Assembly (NCBI GenBank): GCA_020348985.1
Contig: CP070761.1
Location: 1,459,646 to 1,521,148 of the forward strand
DNA: 61,503 bases
Origin: Candidatus Thorarchaeota archaeon
GTDB lineage: Archaea > Asgardarchaeota > Thorarchaeia > Thorarchaeales > Thorarchaeaceae
Reading direction: 5' to 3'
The notes beneath the pieces are model-generated. The model was not told the origin of the DNA. It saw only the letters and a list, made by a program, of their open reading frames with translations, and made no database searches. The translations under genes and the position numbers were made by a program. Below are positions 34,553 to 55,899 of the stretch, piece by piece. Within the stretch, counting starts at the first letter, position 1. Every line of letters starts with the position of its first letter.

Positions 34553-36547
34553 CTACTGCATCATCCCCATGGCATCCTGGTTCTCGTACTTCATCTGCCA
34601 ATGTGTCGTGCCTGCACGAATCTTGTTCTGCAAGATGATATGTGCCCGCACAAAGTCAACTGGCTTGGGCGGACAACCGGGCAGGTAGACGTCAACCGGT
34701 ACAACCTTGTCAGGCGGCGTCATGAGCGAGTAGCCGTCCCAGAAGAGACCCCCACTTGCAGCACACTGACCGAACGACATGACGTACTTCGGCTCGGGCA
34801 TCTGCTCGTAGATTCGTCGAAGCCTTGGCGCCATCTTCTTCGTAAGAGATCCTGAGATCCACAGTACGTCGCATTGCCGAGGTCCGAATAGAGGCAGCAT
34901 TCCGAATCGCTCAATATCCCATCTTGACGCCACTGCGGCCGCACCGTCAACCATGCAACAGCCAAGTCCGTACTGGACCGGCCATGGGCTGTGAGCTCTC
35001 CCCCATCTAAGCATCCACTTCAGTGGCGGGACATTCTGCAGCCACTTGAGCAATATCGGTGCAATGCGGCCGAATCCGTTCCTGAAGAAGTCATAGAATA
35101 TCCAGAGGAAGTACTTGCCGATTCTGAGAATGAATGGAAGCCAATAGGCAAACACCTTGCCTGGGTTCGAGATTTCCTTCGGGTCCCACTTCAGCTTGGC
35201 GGCGCGGATCTTCGCAAGCCGTCGCTTACCAAAGTAGGTCGATGCGTAGTTGGCGAACCATATTCCCGTAGAGTGAGGATGTCCACCGTGACGCTGTGCA
35301 ATCTTGAAGATGACGAAGCTCTGTGCCCAGCTGAACATGAAGAAACGTCGACGCTCGTCTTCGAGGAAGTATCCCATCATCGTAACGCCGTTCTTGGACG
35401 TGACATAGCCATCGATTCCAGCGCGAGCTGAAGCCTGCTCAAACTGGAAATCACTTAGGATTGGTTCAAGGTTTTCAAGCGGAGCAAACGCCTGTCCTAC
35501 AACCAAAGTTGGGCCGCCTTTCTTAACACGCATAGGATAGTAGCGGTCATGCCATTCGTGTTCGGCTACATGCTTGTCATATACAACACCTTGGAACTCC
35601 TCTGCCACGTGCCGAACTAGGGCGTGGCCCTCTTCGACTTCTTCATCAGTTCCGTCATAGGCAACCAAGACCATCCCGTGATGAACAGGGAATGGGAACT
35701 TCTCTTCACTTTCCCAGTTTGCCTTCTTGAGGTCAGTGTACTTGCTCTCTTCGAACTTGATTGTATGAGGCGTCGGTCCTTCCTCAACGATCTTCTCAAT
35801 GGCGAAGACCATCAAGTAGTTCTCGGGAAAACTAGCCACAATCGGTTTTATCGGCGTCAACGGCTTAATCTTGAGTTTGACTTTGGTTATAATCCCAAGA
35901 ATCCCCTCGGTGTCGCACCAGAGGTCAGTATCCTTGCTTCTGATGATTCTACCTTTTGGCAGTACAGCCTCGACTTCAATCACGTTGTCGTTGATTGTGC
36001 CATACTTGAGTGAGCCGATACCGTCTCCGCCTTGTGAAACCCATCCGCCGACCGTGGCAGATAATCCAGATGATGGATAGGCTCTCAGATCCAAGTCGTG
36101 TCGGTTCAACTCGAACTGAAGATTGGCCCAAGAGATGCCAGGCTCAACAGTAACGGTCAGATTTTCTTTGTCGATTTCAACAACAGAGTCCATCCTGCGC
36201 ATGTCAACAACAATGCCGCCCTTTCTCGGAATTGCACCGCCATAACCCGAGGTCCCTGCGCCTCTTGGCACAAGCGGGATTTTGTGTTTGTTTGCGAATT
36301 CGTAGAGGGTCTTGATCTCCTGAGGGGTCTCTGGCTGAACGATAGCATCGGGGTTCGGGTTCATCAGCCACCCGACTTGCTTGGGCAACGACCCGACATC
36401 CATCCCTTGAATAACGAGTTCATGCTTCTCAGTGAGAAGCCGGTCACCGAAGGTCTCGGCGAGTTTAGAGGCAAGTTTCTTTTTCAGCGTCACGCAGGGA
36501 CTCTCCATACTGTCTGCTGATGGTCGGGGGGTGGATTCCTCCGACAT
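34553..36547 (-). CDS. nuoB: Fusion of a VAO/GlcD-type FAD-binding oxidoreductase (N-terminal ~470 aa) and NuoB (C-terminal ~160 aa)
   Basis: FAD domain: PRGAGTSGYGG, VEPG, ATVGG, GILGIITKV, NPGK. NuoB domain: SPWP..YGLGCC, DIERFG, PRQCD, RIYEQMPEPKYV.SFGQCA.SGG, VPVDVYLPGCPP. One continuous ORF. Confidence 0.92.
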   Translation of the reverse strand: MSEESTPRPSADSMESPCVTLKKKLASKLAETFGDRLLTEKHELVIQGMDVGSLPKQVGWLMNPNPDAIVQPETPQEIKTLYEFANKHKIPLVPRGAGTSGYGGAIPRKGGIVVDMRRMDSVVEIDKENLTVTVEPGISWANLQFELNRHDLDLRAYPSSGLSATVGGWVSQGGDGIGSLKYGTINDNVIEVEAVLPKGRIIRSKDTDLWCDTEGILGIITKVKLKIKPLTPIKPIVASFPENYLMVFAIEKIVEEGPTPHTIKFEESKYTDLKKANWESEEKFPFPVHHGMVLVAYDGTDEEVEEGHALVRHVAEEFQGVVYDKHVAEHEWHDRYYPMRVKKGGPTLVVGQAFAPLENLEPILSDFQFEQASARAGIDGYVTSKNGVTMMGYFLEDERRRFFMFSWAQSFVIFKIAQRHGGHPHSTGIWFANYASTYFGKRRLAKIRAAKLKWDPKEISNPGKVFAYWLPFILRIGKYFLWIFYDFFRNGFGRIAPILLKWLQNVPPLKWMLRWGRAHSPWPVQYGLGCCMVDGAAAVASRWDIERFGMLPLFGPRQCDVLWISGSLTKKMAPRLRRIYEQMPEPKYVMSFGQCAASGGLFWDGYSLMTPPDKVVPVDVYLPGCPPKPVDFVRAHIILQNKIRAGTTHWQMKYENQDAMGMMQ

Positions 36548-36685
36548 AAAAACCTAGCGAGATTCAGGCACCGGGTCGGACCACTCGACAGCGATTTTGG
36601 ACGTTTGTCATAGAGAAAAAGTATTAGTGCAGGTTTGTGGGGAACCCGACGACGGAAAGAAGTATGCTTCTGAGGTCTTGAAACA

Positions 36686-37912: not shown

Positions 37913-37965
37913 GAATCGATGCGCTTTCGACATGTAAATATGTAGCCGTTTACGGTTACAGTCTA

Positions 37966-39228
37966 ATGAGCGAGCTGTCAATCAGAGACCGTATCAAGAA
38001 GAAGAAATGGGTCTACGAAGAGATCGTCGAAAGAGTCCCGCCATTCAGATGGTTACCGCCAACTCTAGACGTCGTCGCTCAACTTCTACTTGTTGAGGCA
38101 GTGGGGATAATCGCATTCATCTACTTTCAGATGCCCCTTGAAGCTGTCATATTCGGTTCGCTCGCAATTGTCTACACAGTTGTCTGGTCTGCAGGATGCT
38201 TGAACATCATTCCTTGGGTCAGACGCCTGAGGGACCCAACAAATGAACAAGAATTGCGAGTTCTGCAAGCCTACAAGGAACGACTTCTTCTTAGTCGCCC
38301 AATCGAGCTAGCTGGAGGTCTCCTTTGTTTTGCCGGAGTGATTACGATTCTCTTCCTCAATCAGGATGTCTTGAGAGACTTCCTTGGTAGTGGCTTCGGG
38401 AATCCTTTACTGTTTGTTCTGGTGGGCGTGCTGGCATGGGATATCAGCTACAGACTGGGGCTTTCATTCGTCACAACTATGCTTGCGGCAAACAGATCCA
38501 TCCGACTGAGTAACGCTGCAAACAGAAGAAGAGGATTAGAATACACTGCCTATACCGAAGTCCAGACTTTGAAATCACTTGATCTGGTGAACCTATACTG
38601 GGGGGCATCAGCGGTTCTGCTCCTCCCAATAGCAAGCAGACTCCCTCTTCTGTTCTATGGCCTCCTCGCCTTTTTAGGAGCGATTCTGGGATTCTCGGTC
38701 CTAAGCTTGATGATGATGGAGACCGTTCCATGGCTTCCTCCTGATGTAGAGAGCATCCTGCATCACGAACGGTTTGCCTATGTTGCTTTGTGTTCCAAGA
38801 AGCAGACACACGTGACGCCAGTAGTGTTTGTCTATGATGGGAAGCACCTCTACTTCGCCATATCTGTGGCTTCCGCCAAGTACAGGATTCTCAAGAAGAA
38901 TGACAAGATAGCCGCGCTTGTGGATCTTCGAGACCGAAGGAATCCCATGAACAACCGGGCCGTTATGCTGCGAGGAAAAGGCATGATTCTCGGAGAGCTA
39001 ACGCCGCTGGGTACATTGAGACTCTTTATCTATGGATTGTGGATGCTCTGGGTACGATCTCTCTTCTGGAGGAAGTACCCACTCTACATGAACTACTATG
39101 AAGAACGTACTCATGAACTGCCCCTTGCTTGGCAGAACAAACCGTTCCTGTCAAGACTTATGGTTCGTATAGCGGTTGAGAAGATAACTTACTGGAGGGC
39201 GGCGAAACCGTTGCCACTCAGGGTGTGA
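37966..39228 (+). CDS. Multi-TM membrane protein with a C-terminal pyridoxamine 5'-phosphate oxidase-like split barrel
   Basis: ~6 TM helices, then FAYVAL..HVTPVVFVYDG..LYF....SAKYRILKKNDKIAALVD..AVMLRGKG. Confidence 0.75.
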   Translation: MSELSIRDRIKKKKWVYEEIVERVPPFRWLPPTLDVVAQLLLVEAVGIIAFIYFQMPLEAVIFGSLAIVYTVVWSAGCLNIIPWVRRLRDPTNEQELRVLQAYKERLLLSRPIELAGGLLCFAGVITILFLNQDVLRDFLGSGFGNPLLFVLVGVLAWDISYRLGLSFVTTMLAANRSIRLSNAANRRRGLEYTAYTEVQTLKSLDLVNLYWGASAVLLLPIASRLPLLFYGLLAFLGAILGFSVLSLMMMETVPWLPPDVESILHHERFAYVALCSKKQTHVTPVVFVYDGKHLYFAISVASAKYRILKKNDKIAALVDLRDRRNPMNNRAVMLRGKGMILGELTPLGTLRLFIYGLWMLWVRSLFWRKYPLYMNYYEERTHELPLAWQNKPFLSRLMVRIAVEKITYWRAAKPLPLRV

Positions 39229-39232
39229 TCGC

Positions 39233-39718
39233 ATGTTTCAGGCCAAACCAGCAAGGACCCAGTTGCGAAAGACCAGGAGCATTCCATTAGAGGCACTTCA
39301 TGTCCTCAAAGATGGATTCTTTGCATATCTTGCCACAGCCAAGATGGATTGCAACCCGCACCTTACGGCGATGTTCTACATATGGGACGAAGATTCTAGA
39401 TCCATCTACATGATTGCTTCGAAGAGAAGCCGCAAGCTGTATAACATCAGGAATAACACAAAGGTCTGCGTCACCATTGACGAGCGCGATCCATTTTCAC
39501 CTGGAAGAAACTGCGGTGTTATGATTAGGGGCAACGCCCACCTCGTTGAGATGGAAATCGCACCTCAAGACATCATGCTAAACTTTCTTGAGAAGTATAT
39601 GGATTTCCTCGGAGTCGGATATCCGCTCGGTACGAGAATCGCGATTCGTGTCGATCCAAAGTATCTCTCCTATTGGAAAGGAACCAACTTCTATCGTTGG
39701 AAGAACCCAGACATATAG
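39233..39718 (+). CDS. Pyridoxamine 5'-phosphate oxidase-like (FMN/F420/heme split barrel) protein
   Basis: AYLATA....PHLT...SRKLYNIRNNTKVCVTID...GVMIRG.A. Confidence 0.85.
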   Translation: MFQAKPARTQLRKTRSIPLEALHVLKDGFFAYLATAKMDCNPHLTAMFYIWDEDSRSIYMIASKRSRKLYNIRNNTKVCVTIDERDPFSPGRNCGVMIRGNAHLVEMEIAPQDIMLNFLEKYMDFLGVGYPLGTRIAIRVDPKYLSYWKGTNFYRWKNPDI

Positions 39719-39934
39719 AAGAAGGCTTGAATCACTCAATGGTCCATGGTGTGAATTCGTTCGTCAATAATATGAAATGGTTACGAGATGTAAAATAGCG
39801 CCCACAGATATCTGGATACCGTAACCATTCTGAAAACATTCGATAGCAGAATCTTGGAATTTCGGAAAGAGTTTAAAAGTCGCCCATTGTGGGACCGACC
39901 TCGACTAGCGACGAGATGCACACCATATCTCTCG

Positions 39935-41155
39935 ATGGTGACTGATGTGAAGAAGCAGGTTCGTGTTGGTTTGGTTCTCGCGGCCGTGGGATTCGTAATA
40001 ATCTTGGCCGCAGGAAGTGTTGTTGGTTTCCCCAGTCAAAGTGGAAACTGTGCTTCGAGCGGCTGTCATGATGATCCTTCTGGGATAACAATCACGACTG
40101 ACACGACTGTCAATACAGAACCAGGAGCGACATTCGAGCTCACGGTAGATGTAGTTGGACGGTCAGGTCAGAATTCGTTGCTGCTCAAGTTTCCAAGTAA
40201 TCTTGAAGACAACAGCCTCTTCACCTATGTTGGCTTGAGCGCGGAAGGCGAGGTCAGCGATGGAGATCCAGCAGATTTGGATCCCGACACAGATGAGGTC
40301 AGTGTGCAGTACAGCATTACAGCTCCCGGGGGTGCTGGTTCCTATACTCTAACTCTTTTTGCAGCCCAACATACACCAAATGGAAACAGCATTGACATAC
40401 TAGTGAGCGTTGTTCCAACGGGCCCTGGACCACTAATCACGGATGTAAATCGTACACCGTCCATTCCGGAGGCGGAAGAAACCATCACTATTACTGCGAA
40501 TATCTCTTCGCAGTACGCTATAACTGAGGCTACACTTCAGTATAGCACTGATAACGGCACAAACTGGGCGAATGTATCGATGTTTCTTGTCGGAGACTTA
40601 TACGAGGCAGAGATACCTGGTTTTGCTGATGACACATATGTCACTTACCGTATAGTGGCGGTAGATGAGAATGGGATAGAGAGCATTTCGGAGGCTGCAG
40701 AGTATGCTTACAGGGTTGGTGACTTCCCGATACCTCCCCAAGAACCGCCGCCACAGTTACACTACGGCTATTATCTCGGCGCGCCTGCCATCTTTCTGGC
40801 ATATCTAGGGACTGCACTTGAGTACTATGACGAGGAGAAGTTCACAAGGCTACACGGATTGATGCTTACTGCCGCTTACATTCTTACCTCCATCAACATT
40901 CTTCTATTGTTCCAAGAAAGCCCCTCCGCATGGACCGCTTTGAACCCGATGTACATGCTTGACATGTCGAATATATTGCTCTTCGTTCACTCTTGGCATA
41001 TCTGGATTGGCATACTCAGCATGATTCTCGGTACTCTCGCTCTAATTACGCATCTCGCAGGTTGGAAGACCTGCAATCTTGGACTACCTGCAGTTCTGCT
41101 TTGGACGATACTTGGAATATCAGGAATCTATCTCAACATCGCTTTCAGGATGTGA
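39935..41155 (+). CDS. Secreted protein with a CX4CH putative heme c motif and Ig-like domains, fused to a His-containing 4-TM cytochrome b-like domain
   Basis: Signal peptide, NCASSGCH, beta-sandwich domains, Pro linker, and TM helices with LHG and VHSWH. Confidence 0.7.
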   Translation: MVTDVKKQVRVGLVLAAVGFVIILAAGSVVGFPSQSGNCASSGCHDDPSGITITTDTTVNTEPGATFELTVDVVGRSGQNSLLLKFPSNLEDNSLFTYVGLSAEGEVSDGDPADLDPDTDEVSVQYSITAPGGAGSYTLTLFAAQHTPNGNSIDILVSVVPTGPGPLITDVNRTPSIPEAEETITITANISSQYAITEATLQYSTDNGTNWANVSMFLVGDLYEAEIPGFADDTYVTYRIVAVDENGIESISEAAEYAYRVGDFPIPPQEPPPQLHYGYYLGAPAIFLAYLGTALEYYDEEKFTRLHGLMLTAAYILTSINILLLFQESPSAWTALNPMYMLDMSNILLFVHSWHIWIGILSMILGTLALITHLAGWKTCNLGLPAVLLWTILGISGIYLNIAFRM

Positions 41156-41159
41156 TAAA

Positions 41160-42623
41160 ATGGCTGACGAACAAGAAACAGTAGTAGAGACTCTGACATC
41201 CGATGATCCAATCGTGGCCAAGATTGCCAGGATCGTTGGAGCAGAAAACGTGTCAGACACTGAGCTTGAGAGAATCGTCTACAGCGGTGACCCTTCATCA
41301 CTGCCTCAGTTCCACTATCGCTGGAAGTACAAGTATCTAGTTGATTATGTTGTAAGAGTCAAATCGATTGACCAAGTCCAGGCCATAGTCAAGATTGCTG
41401 GCGATGAGAATATTCCGATAATCCCGAGAGGCGGTGCGTCAAGCTGCCTTGGATCTTCAAGTCCAACACGCGGCGGGATTTCACTCGACACGAAACCAAT
41501 GAATCAGGTAATAGAAATCAACTCCTCGGAGATGTACGTTCGTGTGGAGGCAGGTGTCACGTTCAATCAACTTGAAAGAGAGTTATTCAAACATGGTGTG
41601 ACTCTGGGAATCCGACCAACAAGTGCGAGGTCTGCGGTAATCGGAGGCTGGATTGGGTGTGGGGGCGAGGCGGGCATAGGTACTCCCCTTCACGGATCGC
41701 TAGTCAGCAACATCCTCGAGCTGAAAGTAGTCAAGCCAAACGGCGAGTCTGTGAACGTAACTGGTGATGATATTGGTCTCTTCTGTGGCTCCTATGGAAT
41801 CTTAGGCGTCATCTGTGAGGCCAAGCTTCGCGTTGTCAAGTACCCCAGTGGACATACTACCTTCAGCTATGCGTTCGATCTTCTTGAACACACCTGCAAT
41901 GCAATGAGGCATCTGTCAATGCTGGAGCCACAGCCAGTGTATCTCAAGATTGCAGACAAGCAGTTTCAGTCATACAGCAATCCTCTGGAAAAGGGGAACT
42001 ATGTCTTGACGGCAACCTATCAGAACGAACCCGACCCCTGTCCTACGGACAAGATCGAGGCGATAATGGCAGATAATGGTGGCGAATATCTCGGTGCAGA
42101 CTATTCCCTCAAAGACTGGTATTTGGTTGAGGATTGTGAGTTCAATCCTAAGGAGCACTGCCAGACTCTAATGTTCCAGGAAATGCTTGTACAAGTTGAC
42201 AAGCTCTATGATCTGCTTAAGTCATACGAATCCTACAAGAAGTCACACAAGACACCAGCGATTTGGTTTGCGATGCTTGGGCATGATGGTTGGATTCGAG
42301 CAGAACTTATGGCGATGCTAGATCCTGAGAAGTATCTGAAGTTTATTGGTTCGAAGGGAATCTTGCACAAAATGGTGGGCAAGTCAGTCAAGCTGGGTGG
42401 GGGACCATATACGATTGGCCTTCAGAACTCAGTCTACATGAAACGGGCATTTCCAAATAGACAAGAGAAGATGATTGTTGCTAAGGACAAATGGGATCCT
42501 GGTGGTATCATGAATCCAGATAGAGTGACATCATGCTTAACATCGTACCTTAGAATGAATGTGTTGTTCCAGCTCGCTGCTGGGATAAGGCGCCTGTCTA
42601 AGATAATTGACCGAGGTGAATGA
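41160..42623 (+). CDS. VAO/GlcD-type FAD-binding oxidoreductase (subtype B)
   Basis: PRGGASSCLG, VEAG, AVIGGW, GSYGILGVI and WDP.GIMNP; no EHG motif. Confidence 0.88.
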   Translation: MADEQETVVETLTSDDPIVAKIARIVGAENVSDTELERIVYSGDPSSLPQFHYRWKYKYLVDYVVRVKSIDQVQAIVKIAGDENIPIIPRGGASSCLGSSSPTRGGISLDTKPMNQVIEINSSEMYVRVEAGVTFNQLERELFKHGVTLGIRPTSARSAVIGGWIGCGGEAGIGTPLHGSLVSNILELKVVKPNGESVNVTGDDIGLFCGSYGILGVICEAKLRVVKYPSGHTTFSYAFDLLEHTCNAMRHLSMLEPQPVYLKIADKQFQSYSNPLEKGNYVLTATYQNEPDPCPTDKIEAIMADNGGEYLGADYSLKDWYLVEDCEFNPKEHCQTLMFQEMLVQVDKLYDLLKSYESYKKSHKTPAIWFAMLGHDGWIRAELMAMLDPEKYLKFIGSKGILHKMVGKSVKLGGGPYTIGLQNSVYMKRAFPNRQEKMIVAKDKWDPGGIMNPDRVTSCLTSYLRMNVLFQLAAGIRRLSKIIDRGE

Positions 42624-43794: not shown

Positions 43795-45123
43795 ATGAGC
43801 AGTCCACGAGGTACGAAGGTAGTTATTGTTGGTGCTGGAATAGCTGGATTTAGTTGCGCTTTGGAACTAAAAGGCCTGAAGGCACGCTGCACAATTCTTG
43901 AGAAAGAGAGCACTGTTGGCGGACGTACCAGGTCCTATACAGAATCTGGTTATGTCTTCGACCAAGGTCTTCACTTCTTTGTCGGTGGTTTCAAGTCGCT
44001 CATTCCGATTCTAGAGAGAAGCGGCGTGAGGATGACTACTGTTGGAGAAGGTGCAGTCTGGATCAAGGACGGTGAGAAGCACATTGTCCGGAAGTCAGCA
44101 GTTGATCTTGCGAGATTCGGTCTGCTCCCAGTTCCGGACAGGGCGAGGCTTGGCTTGCTCGTGCAAGAGAACATAGGCAGAGAAGACAATGAATTCCTTG
44201 ACATTGACAATATGACCTTCACGCAATACGCAGAGGAGAAGGGTATTCCTGAGTCTATTCAGAATGATTTCTATGACCCACTCATTCGCACAGTCACATT
44301 CATGACTCCGGATGAGGTGTCTGCTGGTCAGTATCTGTACTCTGAGAAGCTCCGCTTTGCCTACGAAGAAGGCTTCAGGGCTATGTACCCAGAGAGAGGC
44401 GGTCTCGGTAGCGTGCCATATACACTCATGCTCCAGGCACGCAACTTCGCTGTCGAACCTCGGGTGAATTGTGCCGTGAAGCAGGTTGTGATTGAGGACG
44501 ATAAGGTTCAGGGTGTAGAGTATGAGACTGAAGGCAAAGCTGAATACCTAGAGGCTGACGCTGCAGTCATTACGACTCCTATTGATTTGCTCCCGAATCT
44601 CGTGAAAATGAACAAGCTTCCAAGCGATTTTGCAAAAGCAGTCGGCAAGTTCTCCTACACTCCGTCAACTGTTGCCTACTTTGGCCTTTCATCTCGAGTC
44701 CTTGATTTCAACGTCGGCGCGTTCGTCCCTGGAAGGAAGATAAACATCATTGCAGAAGCCAAGAGAGTCTCTGGTGTGCTTGCACCAATCGGAGAATCAC
44801 TTCTCACGGTTACTAGCATAGACAAAGATCTTCTGAAGATGAGCAATGGTGAAGCGACCGAAGCAATCCTGGATGAGCTTAAGGAGCTAATACCGGGCGT
44901 CGAGAAGAAGGTGACTTGGAAGAAGAGCTGGAAGATTTGGAGATCTGTTCTTGCTCAGCCCCCAGGAATCTTCGAGGACCGGCTAAAGACGAACCGCACC
45001 GGAGTGGAAGGGCTCTATGTCGCAGGGTCCCATGCCAATTGCGGGATGTACTATGCCTCAATGGAAGCTGCATCCAGGTCGGGCATAGCCTGTGCAGGCG
45101 AGATGGTCGCAGACCTCACGTGA
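43795..45123 (+). CDS. Flavin amine-oxidase superfamily oxidoreductase (HemY/HpnE/phytoene desaturase-like)
   Basis: VGAGIAG, LEKESTVGGR, DQGLHFF and GLYVAG...SMEAASRSG. Confidence 0.8.
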   Translation: MSSPRGTKVVIVGAGIAGFSCALELKGLKARCTILEKESTVGGRTRSYTESGYVFDQGLHFFVGGFKSLIPILERSGVRMTTVGEGAVWIKDGEKHIVRKSAVDLARFGLLPVPDRARLGLLVQENIGREDNEFLDIDNMTFTQYAEEKGIPESIQNDFYDPLIRTVTFMTPDEVSAGQYLYSEKLRFAYEEGFRAMYPERGGLGSVPYTLMLQARNFAVEPRVNCAVKQVVIEDDKVQGVEYETEGKAEYLEADAAVITTPIDLLPNLVKMNKLPSDFAKAVGKFSYTPSTVAYFGLSSRVLDFNVGAFVPGRKINIIAEAKRVSGVLAPIGESLLTVTSIDKDLLKMSNGEATEAILDELKELIPGVEKKVTWKKSWKIWRSVLAQPPGIFEDRLKTNRTGVEGLYVAGSHANCGMYYASMEAASRSGIACAGEMVADLT

Positions 45124-46425: not shown

Positions 46426-48144
46426 GTGGAAATCAATATCCAACACCTCGAAGACATTGTAGGTGCGGATAATGTTACTGACGATAGCGAGACGTGCAAG
46501 GCCTACTCCAGGGATGTGTCAAGCCTACCGAAGCTGGCCGGCCAGATTCTTGACGATCAATTTGATGCCGTAGCTCAGCCAGTGACCGTCGAATCATTAC
46601 AGAAACTTGTGACGTATTCAGGTAGGCGGAAGATTCCCTTGACGATCCGCGGAAACGGGACTTCAGGGTGGGGAGGGTCCATTCCGACACGAGGCGGAAT
46701 ATGTGTAAGTCTCACACACATGTCGAGAGTACTGAATCTCGATGACTTTGGCCTGACCGTTACCGTAGAGGCGGGAATAACTTGGCGTGAGCTGTTGATA
46801 TTCCTGAATCGTCTGGGATCAACTCTTCCGGTCTACCCATCAAGTGCGACAGCAGCTACTGTTGGAGGATTTGTTGCCAGCGGCGGCTTTGGCATTGGTT
46901 CCGCTCGATATGGAGACATAAGCTCTCAGATTGTTGGTGTCGAAGCTGTACTGTTGAATGGTAAGCTCGTACGCGTGGGCAACATGGTTTTGACTGAGCC
47001 AGATCAAGATGCCGCTCGAGCAAAGTCTGGTACAAAGTGGTTCATGAATTGGCTTGAGAGACGTGGGGGGACTGAGGAACCGGACCCTATGTCATATCTC
47101 ATTGGCACTTACGGCGTGTTTGGCATAATAACCAAAGTTACAATGAAGATAATCCCGAGACTACAGTTGCTGCCGTTTGCGGTCTCGTTCGAAACGATAG
47201 ACGATCTTGTGAGAGCTTCGATCCAGATTATCTCGGAGGCTGAGCCCTATCATCTTAGGTTTCTCGCTGACAACTACACCTCAAAACTTCGTGCTCTCAC
47301 TGGCCTCATTTTCGAGGACGGGAAGTTCATCCTATCAGGGGCGTTACTCGACACTATCTTCCAGAACGAGGAGAGTATCGAGACAATCAAGGGAATCACA
47401 GAAACCAACGGCGGAGTGGTTCTTGACATTGAGCGGGCGCAATACCACTGGGATGAACGATTGTTCCCATTGAGAATCAAACGTTTGGGACCCAGTCTTG
47501 TACCCGCAGAAGTGTTAGTACCTACTGCAGAGATTCCGTCCTTGTTGCACGATGTCCGAAGGAAGCTTGGAAGCTCTAGGTTTGCCGTGGAAGGTACAAT
47601 GGATAAATCAGGATTGTCATCTTTCTTGGTTTGGATTCTCGATGATGAGCGCAAGACCGTGTCATATACGATAGGATGGCACAGGTCGTTTGATATCGCG
47701 GCCCTCGCTAAGAAGCATGGAGGCAGTCCGTACGCAATTGCGCTTTGGAACTCAATGCACGCGAAGGAGTTCTATGGGGAACAGCTCTATGAGGAGTTCC
47801 GAGCACTGAAGAAAGAAATCGACCCTCAGAACCTTACGAACACTATGAAAGTGTTTGGAGGCCGAGTCGCTGCGGCGTGGCCATCTCTGATACTCGGGTT
47901 TCTCGGAGGGTTTATTGGACTTTCTCTCGCTTTGTGGATAGGACCCGAGATTCTGGGAGCCTCGTGGCTTAGGGACGCCTTGTTAGCACAGCCGGTTCCG
48001 TTCATGCCATTGCCACTGATAATCTTCATTGCACTCCTAGGGGGCTTGCTGGGATTCTCTGTGATCAAATTCATGTCTCTGAAGCAGGCCATGACACTTG
48101 TGTTGCCGTTGCTCAAAACGCTTGGAAGAGTGATTGGCAAGTAG
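46426..48144 (+). CDS. VAO/GlcD-type FAD oxidoreductase (subtype A) with a C-terminal TM anchor
   Basis: RGNGTSGWGG, VEAG, PSSA..ATVGG, GTYGVFGIITKV, RIKRLGPSL and LDDERK; 2 C-terminal TM helices. Confidence 0.88.
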   Translation: MEINIQHLEDIVGADNVTDDSETCKAYSRDVSSLPKLAGQILDDQFDAVAQPVTVESLQKLVTYSGRRKIPLTIRGNGTSGWGGSIPTRGGICVSLTHMSRVLNLDDFGLTVTVEAGITWRELLIFLNRLGSTLPVYPSSATAATVGGFVASGGFGIGSARYGDISSQIVGVEAVLLNGKLVRVGNMVLTEPDQDAARAKSGTKWFMNWLERRGGTEEPDPMSYLIGTYGVFGIITKVTMKIIPRLQLLPFAVSFETIDDLVRASIQIISEAEPYHLRFLADNYTSKLRALTGLIFEDGKFILSGALLDTIFQNEESIETIKGITETNGGVVLDIERAQYHWDERLFPLRIKRLGPSLVPAEVLVPTAEIPSLLHDVRRKLGSSRFAVEGTMDKSGLSSFLVWILDDERKTVSYTIGWHRSFDIAALAKKHGGSPYAIALWNSMHAKEFYGEQLYEEFRALKKEIDPQNLTNTMKVFGGRVAAAWPSLILGFLGGFIGLSLALWIGPEILGASWLRDALLAQPVPFMPLPLIIFIALLGGLLGFSVIKFMSLKQAMTLVLPLLKTLGRVIGK

Positions 48145-48406: not shown

Positions 48407-49018
48407 ATGAAGAGGAAACAAAGAGCCAATCTCATTGGCGTATTCCTGTTTGTTGGAATTGTCATGGGTCTTGTACCCTTTGCTTTTACGTTCCCTGGAA
48501 ATACCAACGAGTGTAACCAATGCCACACGGATTTGGCATCACTCGGTCTATCTACAAATGCTACAGAGACGGTAGATATCGAAGTTGGTGTTCCCTTTGT
48601 TGTGGAGTTTACAGCAGATAACGGAGCAGAGGCGTTGGCAATAGGCACGGATTGGGAGGACAATGAGCAGTTCCTCATCTCAGACAACTTGGTTGAAGAC
48701 GGAGATGGAGAAGATACGGATGCAACTGAGGGAGTGATTACTACATCAGTGACCTTCACTCCAATTGCCGTGGGCGAGTTTACTATCAGGGCTTGGGCGG
48801 CTGCGAACTTGGGCAGGGCAGTTTCAATTGATGTGACAGTCAATGTCACCGAGGGAGCCACGACATTCACAACACCGCCACCGACCACAACAACCACACC
48901 TCCACCCGATCCCCTGATTGAAATATGGACAATGATGATGTACACACTGATTCCGGCCACGGCAGTAATCTTGGTCATCCTCAGTGTGATAATGTTGAGG
49001 AAAGCCCCCAAGGACTAG
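48407..49018 (+). CDS. Membrane-anchored monoheme c-type cytochrome candidate
   Basis: Signal peptide, CNQCH, beta domain, TTPPPTTTTTPPP linker and C-terminal TM helix. Confidence 0.75.
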   Translation: MKRKQRANLIGVFLFVGIVMGLVPFAFTFPGNTNECNQCHTDLASLGLSTNATETVDIEVGVPFVVEFTADNGAEALAIGTDWEDNEQFLISDNLVEDGDGEDTDATEGVITTSVTFTPIAVGEFTIRAWAAANLGRAVSIDVTVNVTEGATTFTTPPPTTTTTPPPDPLIEIWTMMMYTLIPATAVILVILSVIMLRKAPKD

Positions 49019-49027
49019 GTGATGACT

Positions 49028-49525
49028 ATGGCTATACATCCAGTTTTCGTACACTTCCATACAGGAATCCTAACAGCGAATGCAGCAATTGCGCTTCTCA
49101 ACCTCATAATGAGGACCGTTTTCAGAGACAGAATCCGCACTCCCGGGACAACAATGGCGAGGTTATTTCACGAGTTCGACACATTCATACTCTGGGGGAA
49201 CATCATAGGATTACTGGGTTTGGTGGCTGGAGTAGTCACTGGATTCATGGATTGGCCGATGCAGGCACTTATTGATGACCCATATATGAGATTCAAGATA
49301 CTCTGGTCCGCAATTGCTCTAGAGATCTTTGTATTCCTCGTTGTCATGCGCCTCAAGCTCGGCGACAGGGTCTGGGCCAGCACATCTAGTTACCTCATCT
49401 ACGGAATTCTCGTCGTGGTGGGCGGAGTTCTGATGATAATTCTGGGTGCTATGGGAGGCATTGCGGTGTATAGCGACTCAATTCTGAAGCCGGTCCTTGA
49501 TTGGCTTGGTCTACCATGGCCGTGA
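49028..49525 (+). CDS. DUF2231-like 4-TM membrane protein (possible heme b)
   Basis: N-terminal HPVFVHF (HPxxVHF), ..TG in TM2 and GG..VY at the end; start approximate. Confidence 0.7.
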   Translation: MAIHPVFVHFHTGILTANAAIALLNLIMRTVFRDRIRTPGTTMARLFHEFDTFILWGNIIGLLGLVAGVVTGFMDWPMQALIDDPYMRFKILWSAIALEIFVFLVVMRLKLGDRVWASTSSYLIYGILVVVGGVLMIILGAMGGIAVYSDSILKPVLDWLGLPWP

Positions 49526-49538
49526 GGTGCTGAAGCAG

Positions 49539-50723: not shown

Positions 50724-50732
50724 GTGATCATC

Positions 50733-52469
50733 ATGTTGAAGGAAAGACAGTTGACCGAACTTGCAGACATAGTGGGTGAAGACTACTTTTCCTCAGAAGA
50801 GTACATGAGAAAGCTCTACTCACAGGACATTGCTGCGCTACCGGGTCTTGTACATGATCTGCTAGACACGAGCGTAAGTGCTGTTGCTCAGCCGACGACA
50901 AGTGAGGTAGTAGCGAACCTCCTCCAGTATTGCCTCAAGGAGCGTATCCCTGTTGTCCCAAGAGGACATGGGACCAGCGGATATGGAGGTGTGCTCGCGA
51001 CCAAGGGTGGCATCGTTGTTGAAATGACAAGGATGAATGAGATCTACAACATTGATAGAGAGAACATGACCGTTGAAGTTGGGGCCGGGATAATTTGGGG
51101 CAAGCTGATTGAGGAGCTAGAGGATGAAGGACTAACAGTTGCTGCCTATCCGTCAAGTGCGCCTTCAAGCACTGTCGGAGGATGGGTGGCGGCAGGTGGA
51201 ACAGGAATCGGAAGCACCAAATACGGAGGCATTAGAGAGCAAGTTGTTGACCTTGAGGTGGTACTGCCCGATGGTCAAATCATCAAGACTACAAAGGCGG
51301 GTATTGGCCTCTTTCAGGGATACAAGGGGCTCGACTATATGTATCACCCAGGTACTGACAAGTACCAGTGGGGACCTTCCGGACATGACAAACCGGGAGA
51401 CGATGTCACAGGATTATTTGTGGATAGCAATGGCACTCTCGGTATTATCACGAAAGTAAAGCTCAAGATAATCCCACTTAGAACGATTCAACCTATGGTG
51501 GCCTCGTTCCGAAGTAGGAAGCTAATGATTGGAGCATTGAAGGATATTCTTGAAGCAACGCGTCCATTCTATCTGCACTTCATTACGAACGACTTCTACC
51601 GAATGCTAGGTGAAGTTGACAAAGCTCCCGAAACAATAGGAGAATGGATAGTCCTTAGCACGTATGAAGGTTCAGATGCTGAGGTAGCAGGAGAGGTGGA
51701 GAAGTTCCATCACTTCGTGAGCAGATATGGTGGTACTGTGGAATCCGACGAAATTGCAAATCATGAGTGGGCCGAACGGTTCTATCCATTGAGGATAAAG
51801 AGACTTGGTCCTAGTCTGGCGCCTTCAGAAGTCTATGTTCCACTCGAACACCTTGAGGAGTATCTGGAGCATCTTGACAGACACTTCAAAGGAGAGAAGT
51901 ATGCGGTTGAGGGTGCGATTGATGACCTCGGAGAAGTAGCCGCGCTTGCGTGGTTCCTTGATGATGAAAGAAGGAAGATATCGTTCCTCATGGGATGGTA
52001 CAGGTCGCTCGATTTCATAAAGTTAGGACTTCAGCACGGTGGCCGAGCATACTCCATTGGAATGTGGAATGCGGGACACTCACTCTCGTTCTTTGGACGA
52101 AAGAACTACGGACTGATGGAGAGAATGAAGAGCCAGACTGATCCGAAGAATCGTCTCAATCCAGGGAAGGTCTTTCCAGCGTCATTGAATTTGTCGATAC
52201 GATTCAATCTCTTGATCCTGCTAGTCGCGACGATTGCGGTTCCAGTCGTTTTATGGTTCGCTGGACTTCTAGTACCAGACTTGATCATGGCGTATGTTCC
52301 TTGGCTGATGCTCCAAGACGTGATGTCTGTGTTCATTGCAATGGTCATCGGATTACTCATAGGCGTAGTGGTTGTTGAGATAGCCAATATTGTGCCTATC
52401 ACATTCCTCCTCGCCATCGGCGCCCATTTCATGCGGCTTGGAAGGAGAATCTTCAAGGGTTCCAAGTAG
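50733..52469 (+). CDS. VAO/GlcD-type FAD oxidoreductase (subtype A) with a C-terminal TM anchor
   Basis: PRGHGTSGYGG, PSSAPSSTVGGW, GTLGIITKV, RIKRLGPSL, LDDERR and NPGK; 2 C-terminal TM helices. Confidence 0.88.
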   Translation: MLKERQLTELADIVGEDYFSSEEYMRKLYSQDIAALPGLVHDLLDTSVSAVAQPTTSEVVANLLQYCLKERIPVVPRGHGTSGYGGVLATKGGIVVEMTRMNEIYNIDRENMTVEVGAGIIWGKLIEELEDEGLTVAAYPSSAPSSTVGGWVAAGGTGIGSTKYGGIREQVVDLEVVLPDGQIIKTTKAGIGLFQGYKGLDYMYHPGTDKYQWGPSGHDKPGDDVTGLFVDSNGTLGIITKVKLKIIPLRTIQPMVASFRSRKLMIGALKDILEATRPFYLHFITNDFYRMLGEVDKAPETIGEWIVLSTYEGSDAEVAGEVEKFHHFVSRYGGTVESDEIANHEWAERFYPLRIKRLGPSLAPSEVYVPLEHLEEYLEHLDRHFKGEKYAVEGAIDDLGEVAALAWFLDDERRKISFLMGWYRSLDFIKLGLQHGGRAYSIGMWNAGHSLSFFGRKNYGLMERMKSQTDPKNRLNPGKVFPASLNLSIRFNLLILLVATIAVPVVLWFAGLLVPDLIMAYVPWLMLQDVMSVFIAMVIGLLIGVVVVEIANIVPITFLLAIGAHFMRLGRRIFKGSK

Positions 52470-52610
52470 AATCTGACATGGGCCCTCCTTCAGTGGGAAG
52501 GGGCGCCCTGCATTTTTGCCAGCACAACACGATGTTACTTTGTGAAAGAAAATCGGTGGTTTCAATTTCGTTTCAAAACAACCCTTATATGCCACAAGGG
52601 ATTGGCCTGT

Positions 52611-52681
52611 CGCTAGCACAGAGCCATTCACATCCCGTCGGTACGCTCTCGGGATGTGGCAGGAGCTCGTTTGTGCTAGCG
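52611..52681. ncRNA. Candidate structured RNA (long interrupted hairpin)
   Basis: CGCTAGCACA/TGTGCTAGCG (10 bp), GAGC/GCTC and CACATCCCG/CGGGATGTG (9 bp) in an intergenic region, ~20 nt downstream of TTATAT. Confidence 0.45.
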
Positions 52682-52763
52682 GACCCGATGAGTATGGCAT
52701 CTCATGAGAATGGTTCACACGGAAAGACGCGACTCTTGATTCATGCAGTAGAGGGTTTGTAAG

Positions 52764-53171
52764 ATGAACGAAGTTGTGAGTATGCTGACGCCGCAACAGG
52801 CGGGTTCCAATTTACATATGACGATAATCCTGGGCTTGCCGGCAATAGTTCTGCTTGGCGTGGGTACGCTTCTCTATTTCATCTCACATGAGAAGTATAC
52901 GTTTGCTCACGGAGTCTTGGCAGGTCTGTCATTGCTTTTGACAACGATTAACATTCTGACAATCCTTCCCATGACTAGTGTTGTACTCAGTGTTCCGGGG
53001 ATTGACCTATTCCACCTCATCCACATAATTGTAGGGGCGGTGGGGTACATCTTTGGGTTGGCGGCTTTCGTCACAGGTATCTCTGGTGTTAGAACAAAAG
53101 TACCCGGTCTGATTGCGTTTGTGTGCTGGACTACAGTCTTTGTCATGGGATATGTCCAGTTCTTGATGTGA
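52764..53171 (+). CDS. Small His-containing 4-TM protein, putative cytochrome b; paralog of the C-terminal domain of 39935..41155
   Basis: LGLPAI..EKY..AHG..TINIL..FHLIHI.VG..G....CWT aligns by eye with LGAPAI..EKF..LHG..SINIL..VHSWHIWIG..G....LWT. Confidence 0.7.
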   Translation: MNEVVSMLTPQQAGSNLHMTIILGLPAIVLLGVGTLLYFISHEKYTFAHGVLAGLSLLLTTINILTILPMTSVVLSVPGIDLFHLIHIIVGAVGYIFGLAAFVTGISGVRTKVPGLIAFVCWTTVFVMGYVQFLM

Positions 53172-53182
53172 GGGAAGTAGAC

Positions 53183-54667
53183 ATGGAGAATCCTACACAG
53201 CTTGTTGAAGAAATCCAAGATCTATCCGAACTGCCATGGGCGAGCTCGAGCATGGTGGAGCGTCTGTCAGCGAGCGGAGACACCACAGGAATTCCTTACT
53301 ACCACTTCCGATGGAAGAAGAAATGGCTTGCTGATTATGTCACGTGGCCCACCTCAAATGAACAAGTAGCCATGGTCCTAAAGTACGCATCAAGGCAAAA
53401 TATCCCAGTTATTCCCAGAGGCGGAGGCAGCTGTTACTATGGATCTGCCAGTCCGACCAGAGGAGGAATAATCATCGACACAAAGAGAATGGACAAGATC
53501 GTTGAAGTCAACAAAGAGGAGAAATGGATTCGAGTACAGGCGGGCGCGGTCTGGGAGATACTTGGCAGGGAGCTGGCCAAACAGGGTCTTGCGCTCACGG
53601 TCTCTCCGCAGAGTGCTACAGCTTCGACGCTTGCAGGTTGGTTGGCGATAGGTGGTAAGGTCGGAATAGGAACTCCGAAGTTTGGCTCGATGCTAGACAA
53701 CGTATACGAAATGACAGTTGTAAGGCCAAGTGGACAGGTCGAGAATGTCTCCGGCGATGAGATGAAGATCTTCTTTGGCACTTCGGGGATTGCTGGTGTA
53801 GTGACGGAGATCAAGATGAAGATCCGAGATCTCCCAGAAGTAGTCGACGGGGCGATGTTTGGATTTGATGAATTGGACAACGCCATTACTGCTGTTAGGC
53901 GTTTGGCCCAACGGGACATAAGGCCAGTCTACCTTAGGCTTACTGACTTGGAGTACGAATGGCGAGTACAGGGAGGACTTCCGTACGGTGTGACCAGTCG
54001 CTTCTTCGTTATGGTGACCTACGACGGCGACGCCTCAGATGTTGCAGATGGTGTTCGTTCCGCAAGAGGCATCCTTGAAGTCTCTGGAGGTAGGGATGTC
54101 GGAAGAGACTACTATGAACTGAACTGGCGTGATCGATTCATCGCTGAAATGAAGATTAAGCTCGAAGTTCCGACCCTTTCTATGCAGAACTTCTGGATTC
54201 CAGTCGAAAACATAGATCCTCTTGTCAGAAGGATGTACAAAATCGCTAATAGTTACCGAATCAATTCCTGCTTCTATTTGGTCATGGGTGAGAGAACCAT
54301 GACCCGCTTCTGTATATTTGCTCCTTCAGATCACAGACATTGGATGCACTTCATGGCAGGAAAGTCAATGCTTCACAGAATGGTGAAGTGGGTCTACAAG
54401 TATGGAGGAGAGCTCTACACATTGGGACTCCAGAACACGGTGTATCTGAAGAAGTTCCAACCCAAGGATTACGAGTATTTCCAAGAAATCAGGAGTAGAT
54501 GGGACGAGAAAGGAATCATGAATCCTGACAAGTTGACGCACTCAAACATCACCTATTCCAGAATGAACATGATGTTCACAATGAATGGACATCTCAGAAG
54601 GCTGCAGGCACTGCTTGGAAGGGCGAAAAGAATCCTGGAAACTCCGGTTTCCTTGAGGGAGGGATAG
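53183..54667 (+). CDS. VAO/GlcD-type FAD-binding oxidoreductase (subtype B)
   Basis: YHFRWK..LADYV, PRGGGSCYYG, GTSGIAGVV, GLQN.VY and WD.KGIMNP. Confidence 0.88.
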   Translation: MENPTQLVEEIQDLSELPWASSSMVERLSASGDTTGIPYYHFRWKKKWLADYVTWPTSNEQVAMVLKYASRQNIPVIPRGGGSCYYGSASPTRGGIIIDTKRMDKIVEVNKEEKWIRVQAGAVWEILGRELAKQGLALTVSPQSATASTLAGWLAIGGKVGIGTPKFGSMLDNVYEMTVVRPSGQVENVSGDEMKIFFGTSGIAGVVTEIKMKIRDLPEVVDGAMFGFDELDNAITAVRRLAQRDIRPVYLRLTDLEYEWRVQGGLPYGVTSRFFVMVTYDGDASDVADGVRSARGILEVSGGRDVGRDYYELNWRDRFIAEMKIKLEVPTLSMQNFWIPVENIDPLVRRMYKIANSYRINSCFYLVMGERTMTRFCIFAPSDHRHWMHFMAGKSMLHRMVKWVYKYGGELYTLGLQNTVYLKKFQPKDYEYFQEIRSRWDEKGIMNPDKLTHSNITYSRMNMMFTMNGHLRRLQALLGRAKRILETPVSLREG

Positions 54668-54672
54668 AGGAA

Positions 54673-55899
54673 ATGAGACGATTCTTCACTAAGGAATTCG
54701 ACTTCGACCCTGACAAGATCGTTCTATGCAGCAATTGCTCCACATGTAGATGGACTTGTACAAGCTATGAGGAGTTTGGCAGCGAGGCCTATTTTGCTGG
54801 AGGAAGACTCCGTCTACTTCGATCATATGTGGAGAGGAATCTTCCTGTTGATGACGACTTCGTGCGAGCTGTCTATGCGTGTTCCACTTGCGAGCAATGT
54901 GTTGAAAGATGTCCAATCAAGGTCCCCTATGTCGATATTGTGGAGGATATTCGTCACAAACTCGTCGAATCTGGCAAGGGCCCTTACGGCCGTCTTCATC
55001 TAATGGGTGATATGGTCTTGAAGCGCCACAATCCATACGGTGAGAAGCCAGAGGAGAGGGCTGACTGGGTTAAGAGTGATACTCGAGTTTCGAACGACTC
55101 AGAGTGGGGATACTTTGTTGGCTGCACGGCCTCTTTCAAGAGAAAAGAGATTGGGGATGCAACACTTCGAATGTTGAACTACTTCGGAATTGAGCCACAG
55201 ATACTTGGTGAAGAAGAATTTTGTTGTTGCAGCCCGTTGATAAGAACCGGACAGATTGAACGAGACGTCTATGATGAGGCAGAAGATGGGACCAAGACAT
55301 ATGTTGGAAGGCTCAATGTGGGCGAGAAGATCAACCACAACATGGAGAAAATCATAGAGAGAGGGATCAAGCACATCATCTTTTCATGTTCAGGTTGCTT
55401 CAGAACTGTCACACTCGACTGGCCTAACTACTACAGGGCAAGAGGAGGAATCCTGCCATTCACAACACAACACCTTAGCCAATTCCTGGCACTCAAAATC
55501 AAACAAGGAGAGCTTGAGTGGAAATCATCGTATCCTGAAAGAGTAACCTATCACGACCCATGCCATCTTGGCCGCCATGTTGGCATCTTTGATGCGCCAA
55601 GGGTAGTCTTGGAGAGCATTCCTGGGATTGAGTTCATTGAGATGGATCGCGCGAGAGAAGATGCGAAGTGTTGTGGTGCAGGAGGAGGTTTCAAAGCCGG
55701 ATTCGGCGATAATGCTATCAACACTGCAGAGAGGAGACTTGAGATGGCTATCGATACTGGAGCATCTACACTCGTGTCATCGTGCGTGTTCTGCAAACTG
55801 AACTTCATGGACGCAATCAAGAAGAGAGGCGTTGAAATGAAGGTGCTCAATCTTGAAGATCTCTTCATTGACTTGATGGGTCTCCAAGGGCCAGGCTAG
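54673..55899 (+). CDS. HdrD/GlcF-like CCG-domain Fe-S protein, copy 5
   Basis: CSNCSTCRWTC, CSTCEQCVERCP, FCCC..CSGC and HDPCHLGRH..KCCGAGGG..CVFC. Confidence 0.9.
   Translation: MRRFFTKEFDFDPDKIVLCSNCSTCRWTCTSYEEFGSEAYFAGGRLRLLRSYVERNLPVDDDFVRAVYACSTCEQCVERCPIKVPYVDIVEDIRHKLVESGKGPYGRLHLMGDMVLKRHNPYGEKPEERADWVKSDTRVSNDSEWGYFVGCTASFKRKEIGDATLRMLNYFGIEPQILGEEEFCCCSPLIRTGQIERDVYDEAEDGTKTYVGRLNVGEKINHNMEKIIERGIKHIIFSCSGCFRTVTLDWPNYYRARGGILPFTTQHLSQFLALKIKQGELEWKSSYPERVTYHDPCHLGRHVGIFDAPRVVLESIPGIEFIEMDRAREDAKCCGAGGGFKAGFGDNAINTAERRLEMAIDTGASTLVSSCVFCKLNFMDAIKKRGVEMKVLNLEDLFIDLMGLQGPG

Follow-up and report, generated by a model that had tools for sequence, protein, structure and literature searches.

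INTRODUCTION

In EtfD of Mycobacterium smegmatis, a protein of known structure (PDB 9ojn; Courbon et al. 2026, PMC13083937), electrons from a flavoprotein donor pass to the clusters of two CCG domains, from these to two cubane [4Fe-4S] clusters, and on through haem b to menaquinone. Here we describe an array of comparable parts in Candidatus Thorarchaeota archaeon (assembly GCA_020348985.1). The window, meaning the whole stretch of DNA that was analyzed, spans 61,503 nt (contig CP070761.1, 1,459,646 to 1,521,148, forward strand) and contains five pairs of genes, in each of which a FAD_binding_4 flavoprotein (F1 to F5) lies beside an iron-sulfur protein with two [4Fe-4S] and two CCG motifs (C1 to C5). 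The array directly adjoins a complex I-like operon with four Proton_antipo_M subunits. With modest confidence, we read it as five membrane-attached flavo-iron-sulfur oxidoreductases that would work much as EtfD does. The C proteins share the two cubane clusters and two CCG domains of EtfD, and the proposed route shares its path from flavoprotein through haem b to menaquinone (PMC13083937). However, EtfD is one chain with an N-terminal haem-b domain of five transmembrane (TM) helices, whereas the thorarchaeal membrane parts are separate small proteins from different families or TM tails of F proteins; its donor is ETF rather than a VAO-type flavoprotein; and its first CCG motif is CT and holds a non-catalytic linear 3Fe-4S cluster (PMC13083937), where the thorarchaeal C proteins have CC in both motifs.

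Pairs of this general kind are already published. Sif- and Jordarchaeia carry 9 to 13 Dld copies per genome (PMC9723677), and a FAD_binding_4 gene beside an HdrD-like gene, in multiple copies as in the thorarchaeal island, has been reported as Dld/GlcD-HdrD in these Asgard lineages and in Korarchaeia, Bathyarchaeia, and Methanomethylicia (PMC9723677, PMC10667645, PMC6783470). For some of these an association with an Fpo/complex I-like enzyme was proposed (PMC10667645, PMC6783470), as we describe for F1. The likeness considered here is one of domain pair: the island proteins are without the D-2-hydroxyacid metal site, and they come with membrane tethers, a covalent NuoB fusion, and haem-type partners. 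A limited literature search returned nothing on the NuoB fusion, the absent metal site, the module-specific tethers, or the haem-type partners.

Several respiratory complexes also resemble parts of the array. HdrDE of Methanosarcina, DsrMK, Tmc, and Hmc all combine a cytoplasmic protein of two cubanes and two CCG domains with a membrane haem protein, and in Tmc and Hmc of sulfate reducers an exported cytochrome c is also present, which appears to be the case in the F2 and C4-F4 operons too. Unlike the island modules, these complexes are without a flavoprotein subunit, and their membrane subunits are of the NarI/HdrE type, whereas those of the island belong to a rare 4-TM family or are DUF2231-like. 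The flavin to Fe-S/CCG architecture recurs in GlcDEF and in enzymes of the Dld-II/GlpC type, although the island has no GlcE-like second flavoprotein. Escherichia coli YdiJ, a fused FAD, Fe-S, and CCG D-2-hydroxyglutarate dehydrogenase, carries in one chain the domains that the island divides between F and C. The island proteins fall below the equivalog cutoffs of all of these enzymes and are without their metal ligands. Finally, head-less complex I relatives whose partner modules are exchangeable (Fpo/FpoF and the Fpo-like enzyme of Methanomassiliicoccales) share with the island an 11-subunit-type pump lacking the NADH module, for which cooperation with an HdrD-like protein has been suggested; for Methanomassiliicoccales, an Fpo-like enzyme with HdrD has been proposed (as cited in PMC10667645). 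Compared with these pumps, the island differs in having a flavoprotein joined covalently to the NuoB N terminus and in having four antiporter-type subunits.

RESULTS

Five gene pairs in four operon-like units

Pfam searches placed FAD_binding_4 in five open reading frames (ORFs) of the window (E values of 1e-33 to 5e-41) and identified five further ORFs with a Fer4 dicluster and a pair of CCG domains. F1 (34553-36547, minus strand) is divergent from C1 (36686-37912) across 138 bp. The remaining pairs, like C1, lie on the plus strand: F2 (41160-42623, ORF open from 41079) is followed after 4 bp by C2 (42628-43749, open from 42607), C3 (45228-46421, open from 45144) after 4 bp by F3 (46426-48144), C4 (49539-50723, open from 49497) after 0 to 9 bp by F4 (50733-52469, open from 50724), and F5 (53183-54667, open from 53123) after 5 bp by C5 (54673-55899). 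An original prediction made from the letters of this DNA had counted exactly five flavoproteins and five CCG proteins, each of the former adjoining one of the latter. This count stands: whole-genome family searches put no further FAD_binding_4 or CCG gene in the window, partners are separated by 0 to 138 bp, and the start codons given earlier agree with the first in-frame methionine or with gene-caller starts. The number five holds for the window rather than the genome, a single contig of 3.16 Mb: its full count is 11 FAD_binding_4 genes and some 18 CCG proteins, and four further adjacent F-C pairs lie outside the window. At 11 F genes per 3.16 Mb, 0.07 would be expected in 21 kb by chance, compared with the five seen.

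The plus-strand genes form four tight units, with gaps of 0 to 13 bp in the unit cores and 135 to 294 bp between units. One holds C1, a fusion of DUF7530 and PNPOx, and a second PNPOx-like flavoprotein (the latter two at 37966-39718). The next runs from the membrane protein gene cIg4TM (39935-41155) through F2, C2, and AmOx (43795-45123) to C3 and F3; AmOx, an amine-oxidase/HpnE/phytoene-desaturase-like flavoprotein, always lies between C2 and C3 and is flanked by gaps of 45 bp and up to 104 bp. The third comprises genes for an exported CxxCH protein (cSurf) and a DUF2231-like protein (together 48407-49525), C4, and F4, and the last a short membrane protein gene, 4TM (52764-53171), F5, and C5.

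These four units recur intact, in differing order, in contigs of five genera of the family. The series cIg4TM-F2-C2-AmOx was found in 10/10 genomes as far as each locus extends, with cIg4TM upstream of F2 in all 10 whose locus covers that side, and 4TM-F5-C5 kept its order in 6/6; C1 adjoins F1 in 8 of 11 loci. The order C1-DUF7530-PNPOx is retained in three relatives (G004, G007, and G009), and that of cSurf, the DUF2231-like gene, C4, and F4 in the same three plus G016. Module number varies: of 31 family genomes, subtype B (F2 and F5, defined below) was found in 10, and F5 itself in 6. Conserved pairing, whose absence the original prediction had listed among its refuting outcomes, was found in all relatives examined, these being kin. 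An extra F4-type copy, F4b, lies directly before 4TM-F5-C5 in G009 (G009:C62, ~34113-35837), and the 1.3 kb upstream of it contains no CCG gene or long ORF.

Each pair is very probably one enzyme

The island paralogs are 23 to 37% identical to one another; judged from their sequences, they are old and of two subtypes, A (F1, F3, and F4) and B (F2 and F5). Along with the island proteins, the F and C trees included the orthologs of five relatives, ten fused proteins from outside, and the pairs located elsewhere in this genome. In the F tree, F3 grouped with F4 (Shimodaira-Hasegawa-like approximate likelihood ratio test [SH-aLRT] support of 96), F1 joined them together with the fused proteins (98), and F2 grouped with F5 (89). 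The C tree likewise joined C3 with C4 (93) and both with C1 (92). C2 and C5 were not sisters there, and a forced C2-C5 clade was not rejected (approximately unbiased test, p = 0.125). Co-phylogeny of the partners was therefore recovered for the (3,4)+1 branching and was not seen for subtype B. Gene order follows the subtypes, C preceding F in subtype A (including C1 and F1 at the unfused locus of relative G003) and F preceding C in subtype B, and subtype A looks like the product of duplication of whole C-F units.

The nearest relatives of subtype A outside Thorarchaeota are single chains of about 1,000 aa, from bacteria and Methanosarcina, that carry FAD, Fer4, and CCG domains together. They are 30 to 37% identical to the island C proteins and 26 to 37% to the F proteins, with 34 to 37% to F1, F3, and F4. 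Because these outside relatives hold F and C in one chain, each F-C pair is very probably one enzyme. Strict gene pairing, matching phylogeny, and the single-chain fusions all argue for the two proteins acting as a unit, in agreement with the paralogous functional pairs originally proposed.

The flavoproteins are not canonical D-2-hydroxyacid dehydrogenases

F1 to F5 have the VAO/PCMH fold and are related to GlcD and LDHD. In addition to FAD_binding_4, the FAD-oxidase_C domain reached its Pfam threshold in F1, F3, F4, and F5 and was unreported for F2. The best solved match of F4, over its full length, was mouse LDHD. The metal ligands of LDHD and D2HGDH are a His...His pair and a Glu-His dyad in the cap domain, and the H-to-A difference between structures 8jdc and 8jdb fits this assignment of the LDHD columns. 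F4 has GAIDDLGEVA and GRAYSIG where mouse LDHD has GHxGDGNxH and GEHGIG, and in our alignment the ligand columns are replaced in F1 to F5, in all orthologs, and in the fused outside relatives, with only HxH retained in F1. No F protein reached the cutoff of any dehydrogenase in an NCBIfam equivalog search: scores were 102 to 162 bits against GlcD (TIGR00387, cutoff 567.9) and 57 to 90 bits, over the FAD domain only, against YdiJ (NF049975, cutoff 1350). Because the metal-ligand residues are absent, F1 to F5 are not, to judge by their sequences, canonical D-lactate, glycolate, or 2-hydroxyglutarate dehydrogenases. The prediction that they are substrate-specific dehydrogenases of the GlcD/LdhD type is thus doubtful, given five F proteins without the His/His/Glu metal site and below every equivalog cutoff.

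For subtype B, the best solved match of F5 was alkyl-DHAP synthase, of which the FAD-binding domain alone aligns well. We rejected this identity, as the catalytic HHH is absent (...LYTLGLQ... in F5 versus ...SHHHGVG... in the synthase). A word-seeded search found no close subtype-B relative outside Thorarchaeota, identity falling from 31 to 37% for paralogs to 25 to 28% for generic GlcD-like proteins. YdiJ was likewise rejected as an identity for the ~1000-aa fused relatives P0055, P0059, and P0109, which score 44 to 80 bits against the cutoff of 1350. An in-frame TGA in F2 orthologs, a possible selenocysteine codon, proved to be an alignment artifact of the F5 query, and realignment with F2 gave no internal stop.

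The iron-sulfur partners resemble EtfD

All cysteine motifs are present in C1 to C5 and their orthologs, namely, a pair of ferredoxin-type motifs and a pair of complete CCG motifs (C..CC..CxxC); the first ferredoxin motif of C1 is a variant, CX2CX2CX6C, and the first CCG domain of C5 contains CCC as well as an insertion. The best solved relative of C4 is M. smegmatis EtfD (9ojn_A, E = 3.4e-33), with residues 68-377 aligned to 408-726. C4 also aligned over its full length to the TmcB and HmcF models, at 110.7 bits (cutoff 735) and 82.8 bits (cutoff 750), and the DsrK model gave a score of 70 (cutoff 400). The CC pair of both thorarchaeal CCG motifs is that of catalytic HdrB and not the CT of EtfD, and sequence does not separate a plain electron wire from disulfide chemistry in these proteins. 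TM prediction found no TM helix in any of C1 to C5.

Membrane tethers and putative haem partners

Module by module, the predicted means of reaching the membrane differ. F3 ends in two predicted TM helices and F4 in three, while F2 and F5 have none and are each preceded by a protein with a common 4-TM domain. At the position of the F3 and F4 tails, F1 has a conserved amphipathic linker, also present in unfused orthologs, followed by NuoB. On sequence criteria, then, each module has a membrane link, through NuoB, its own TM helices, or a histidine-rich 4-TM protein. The DUF7530-PNPOx fusion, with five predicted TM helices, and the second PNPOx-like protein could be the membrane partner of C1.

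Four histidines are invariant in both 4TM, which is 135 aa long, and the C-terminal domain of cIg4TM, and proteins of this 4-TM type probably bind haem b. Ahead of its 4-TM domain, cIg4TM has a signal anchor, a CX4CH motif, and two Ig/FN3-like domains; in its AlphaFold2 model, a four-helix bundle accompanies two beta-sandwich domains that are modeled with confidence. A Foldseek search with this model returned tandem Ig/FN3 folds of a generic kind, with no match to the 4-TM part. The ESM Atlas gave weak leads to the four-helix bundles of DUF2231, CtaA, and Cytochrom_C_asm. A profile of the 4-TM domain found 58 clusters among 1.84 billion representatives, most of them representing proteins of ~290 aa whose N-terminal domain is exported; names are attached to few of these, and they point to Asgard archaea or marine sediment. 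In the C4-F4 operon, the exported protein cSurf has a CxxCH motif and is anchored at its C terminus, and the DUF2231-like protein beside it has four predicted TM helices. At a single site in the exported parts, some orthologs have CX2CH and others CX4CH, and we infer that these parts bind haem. No b-type cytochrome of the HdrE/NarI type was found among the island membrane partners, which show no Pfam match or a weak one to DUF2231. The haem-type membrane partners, which the original prediction left out, suggest a route for electrons across the membrane.

In several outside relatives of the 4-TM family of ~290 aa (P0298, P0302, and P0308), the exported domain has a single xxxCH at the site of the CX2CH/CX4CH motif, which hints at haem attachment by a single thioether or at no haem.

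One module is fused to NuoB

F1 is a 664-aa protein whose residues 531 to 635 match Oxidored_q6, the NuoB (N2) subunit of complex I. This part scores 178.3 bits with NF005012 (cutoff 116) and 170 with TIGR01957 (cutoff 142.7), and the N2 cysteine motifs GCC, GQC, and PGCPP are present in the translation. It stands at the head of the operon nuoA-J-K-C-D-H-I-M-L-M-N (21787-33393, minus strand), which is conserved in relatives, encodes the four antiporter-type subunits, and has neither nuoEFG nor a free-standing nuoB. The only other Oxidored_q6 genes of the genome encode proteins of 260 and 311 aa that look, by length, like hydrogenase small subunits, and a 257-aa counterpart in G003 lies within a group 3 hydrogenase operon. 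The fused copy is therefore the sole NuoB candidate for the operon.

The fusion occurs in 46 clusters, nearly all from Thorarchaeota where named, and was seen in none of the other long NuoB-containing proteins of the database. Among genomes G000 to G024, it was found in 18/18 with an orthologous NuoL (at least 66% identity) and in 0/7 without one, the gene being cut by a scaffold gap in one of the 18 and by a contig end in another. The claim that one module is hard-wired to the four-pump complex is thereby upheld. G003 and G018 have an unfused F1 ortholog at 58% identity. An apparent NuoB-less, truncated F1 in G007 is not a real loss: a 100-N scaffold gap (G007:C29, ~40270-40390; L026, ~15270-15390) interrupts the gene, which is why no Oxidored_q6 was found there.

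Elsewhere in the operon, NuoI is intact with its two clusters, so that an entry for ferredoxin would exist. Among solved structures, NuoD (30235-31371, minus strand) matched MbsL best, a subunit of the sulfane reductase MBS of Pyrococcus (6u8y_L), over the full length and better than NdhH or Nqo4. NuoD has R-L-C-M-L-E, compared with RxDY of quinone-type subunits and R-I-C-V-P-E of MBS, and the C-terminal cysteine motif of hydrogenases is absent from its sequence. Between F1-NuoB and nuoA lies TMx (33927-34601, minus strand), a protein with two predicted TM helices, an acidic tail, and no Pfam family, which follows F1 in 11/11 loci of relatives at 29 to 44% identity and is a possible additional subunit of the complex I-like enzyme.

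Many relatives (G001, G005, G006, G010, G011, G017, G020, G021, and others) carry a second, different NuoL-like gene (~675 aa, 43 to 45% identity); the genome studied here (G000) shows one NuoL only. Four fusion-free genomes that were checked, G003, G005, G013, and G018, carry free-standing NuoB-like genes of 148 to 217 aa.

Quinone genes beside the array

Directly after C5, a menA-like prenyltransferase gene (minus strand) and a polyprenyl synthase gene (plus strand) lie head to head (55901-58222). The UbiA-family product of the former is just over the menA cutoff (TIGR00751, 106.8 versus 102.15), and the latter matches polyprenyl_synt at E = 6e-62. Both genes adjoin C1/F1 in all five genera examined (G003, G007, G009, and G016, and inside the array in G004), and in G003 they stay beside C1/F1 even though no orthologous NuoL was found there. 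This neighborhood makes the shared quinone pool of the original prediction plausible. The one-contig genome yielded neither MenB over cutoff nor MqnA/D (PF02621). Judged from gene content, the organism either scavenges the head group or has a different one.

The prenyl synthase ORF (56831-58222) and the 5' end of menA have ~210 bp in common. In the synthase the Pfam domain begins at residue 174, and its orthologs align from about residues 114 to 144, so the true start is probably further downstream.

DISCUSSION

In the mechanism that we prefer, an organic substrate, other than a classical D-2-hydroxyacid, would be oxidized at the FAD of an F protein, and electrons would pass through the four iron-sulfur clusters of its C partner to an acceptor in the membrane. 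That acceptor would be a prenylquinone made with the neighboring menA and prenyl synthase products, haem b, or both, and from there electrons could go on to exported cytochromes c. Complexes of F and C would be held at the membrane by NuoB for F1, by C-terminal TM helices for F3 and F4, and by the histidine-rich 4-TM protein for F2 and F5. Tethering by NuoB would put the F1/C1 module at the membrane-proximal N2/quinone end of the pump. An exported part with a single putative haem c and Ig-like domains would accompany F2, and another monohaem-c part would serve the C4-F4 operon.

Several observations weigh against this mechanism. Replacement of the metal ligands in all F proteins, and absence of the alkyl-DHAP synthase motif from F5, leave no substrate that can be named. 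The CC pairs of the C proteins fit disulfide chemistry equally well, and neither MenB nor MqnA/D was found in this genome for the proposed quinone. Because NuoD has RLCM in place of RxDY and matches MbsL best, quinone reduction by the pump is not assured, and the pump may not reduce quinone. The AlphaFold2 model of F1-NuoB, built from a 33-row alignment, has a predicted local distance difference test score (pLDDT) below 50 over the NuoB part and is uninformative on domain packing. Finally, the conservation described above comes from genomes of one family, which are kin and not independent samples.

The same parts could run in the opposite direction, as in HdrDE, DsrMK, Tmc/Hmc, or the proposed pairing of head-less Fpo with HdrD, and this is the alternative that we take most seriously, although we consider it unlikely. 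Electrons would come in from quinol, from the exported cytochromes c, or from ferredoxin via the pump, and would leave at the CCG clusters to a disulfide or sulfane or at the FAD to an organic acceptor, so that F1/C1 would be the output module of a ferredoxin-oxidizing pump and not its input. The retained HdrB-type CC pair is as expected for such a terminal reductase, and C4 aligns over its full length to TmcB and HmcF, albeit far under their cutoffs. An exported cytochrome c, a membrane histidine protein, and a cytoplasmic CCG protein together mirror Tmc/Hmc; the intact two-cluster NuoI offers an entry for ferredoxin, NuoD resembles MbsL and has no quinone tyrosine, and HdrD/GlcD units associated with Fpo have been proposed (PMC10667645, PMC6783470). 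However, the F protein has no counterpart in HdrDE, DsrMK, or Tmc, and the one-contig genome yielded no ComA (PF02679), which serves to make coenzyme M. Adjacency of menA suits both directions equally. In general, VAO flavoproteins characteristically oxidize their substrates.

The published reading of such pairs, offered for Sif-, Jord-, Bathy-, Kor-, and Verstraete-archaea (PMC9723677, PMC10667645, PMC6783470), would make each a D-lactate or glycolate dehydrogenase coupled to an HdrD that reduces a heterodisulfide of the CoM-S-S-CoB type. The domain pair is identical to that in these reports, mouse LDHD is the best solved match of F4, and there are weak matches to the GlcD model. We nevertheless find this reading improbable for the island: none of the five F proteins, nor their orthologs, keeps the His pair and Glu-His dyad of LDHD at the aligned sites, GlcD scores of 102 to 162 bits stand against a cutoff of 568, and every module has a membrane part that a soluble lactate:heterodisulfide enzyme would not need. 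The ComA result counts here as well, though ComA was the one route to a thiol cofactor that the search covered. Less probable still is a biosynthetic role, in which F and C would modify a lipid, quinone, or haem precursor, for example, in prenylquinone head-group or side-chain chemistry or chemistry of the ether-lipid type, and would take no part in respiration. The FAD domain of F5 has alkyl-DHAP synthase as its best solved match, and the neighbors include menA, prenyl synthase, the HpnE/phytoene-desaturase-like flavoprotein, and PNPOx-like proteins, joined in G003 and probably G007 by a geranylgeranyl-reductase-like gene; in addition, no known naphthoquinone head-group pathway was found in searches for MenB and MqnA/D. 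Five modules with haem-type membrane partners and exported CxxCH proteins are hard to fit to such a role, as is the fusion of one of them to NuoB, and the catalytic motif of alkyl-DHAP synthase is absent.

Thorarchaeaceae are usually read as fermenters or acetogens. A broader and considerably more tentative proposal is that the family runs a respiratory-type membrane electron transfer system of a new design. In this proposal, up to five flavo-iron-sulfur modules would link the cytoplasm to a prenylquinone, to two undescribed histidine-rich 4-TM (haem b) families, and to exported monohaem cytochromes; one module, fused to NuoB, would replace the NADH head of the pump as its input or as its terminal acceptor, and the NuoD site would be neither hydrogenase-like nor of the quinone type. 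Such a system, if it exists, would let electrons reach an acceptor outside the cell or a syntrophic partner. Provided that the putative haem parts are real, a supposedly fermenting Asgard lineage would have a cross-membrane route for electrons, which bears on models of Asgard syntrophy.

The locus also makes two wider questions accessible to experiment. One is what feeds or drains the complex I relatives that lack NuoEFG: here the partner enzyme lies within the NuoB polypeptide and can be purified and imaged with the pump. The other is the real role of the Dld-HdrD pairs annotated in archaeal genomes from metagenomes. From the absent metal site and the membrane wiring, it follows that the routine annotation as D-lactate:heterodisulfide oxidoreductase is probably wrong for the pairs of this lineage.

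Other features of the island

Beyond the prenyl synthase gene, the window contains the cytochrome c maturation genes ccmA, ccmB, ccmC, and ccmE (58290-61153, plus strand), which also lie in the island of G007, G016, and G009. A multihaem cytochrome c with seven CxxCH and two CX4CH motifs is encoded elsewhere in this genome (G000:C1:2167407-2168960, plus strand), 650 kb from the island. Its homologs lie inside the island in G016 (G016:C8, ~40926-42305, 42% identity) and G007 (G007:C27, ~31153-32568), where two large genes follow. The unfused locus of G003 (G003:C3, ~111444-126346; L021/L022) reads geranylgeranyl-reductase-like gene, prenyl synthase, menA, C1, and F1, and continues with a subunit of an ADP-forming acyl-CoA synthetase and then a group 3 [NiFe]-hydrogenase operon. 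Homologs at 72 to 85% identity carry Thorarchaeota names, and a Ras-family GTPase encoded in the window is consistent with an Asgard genome.

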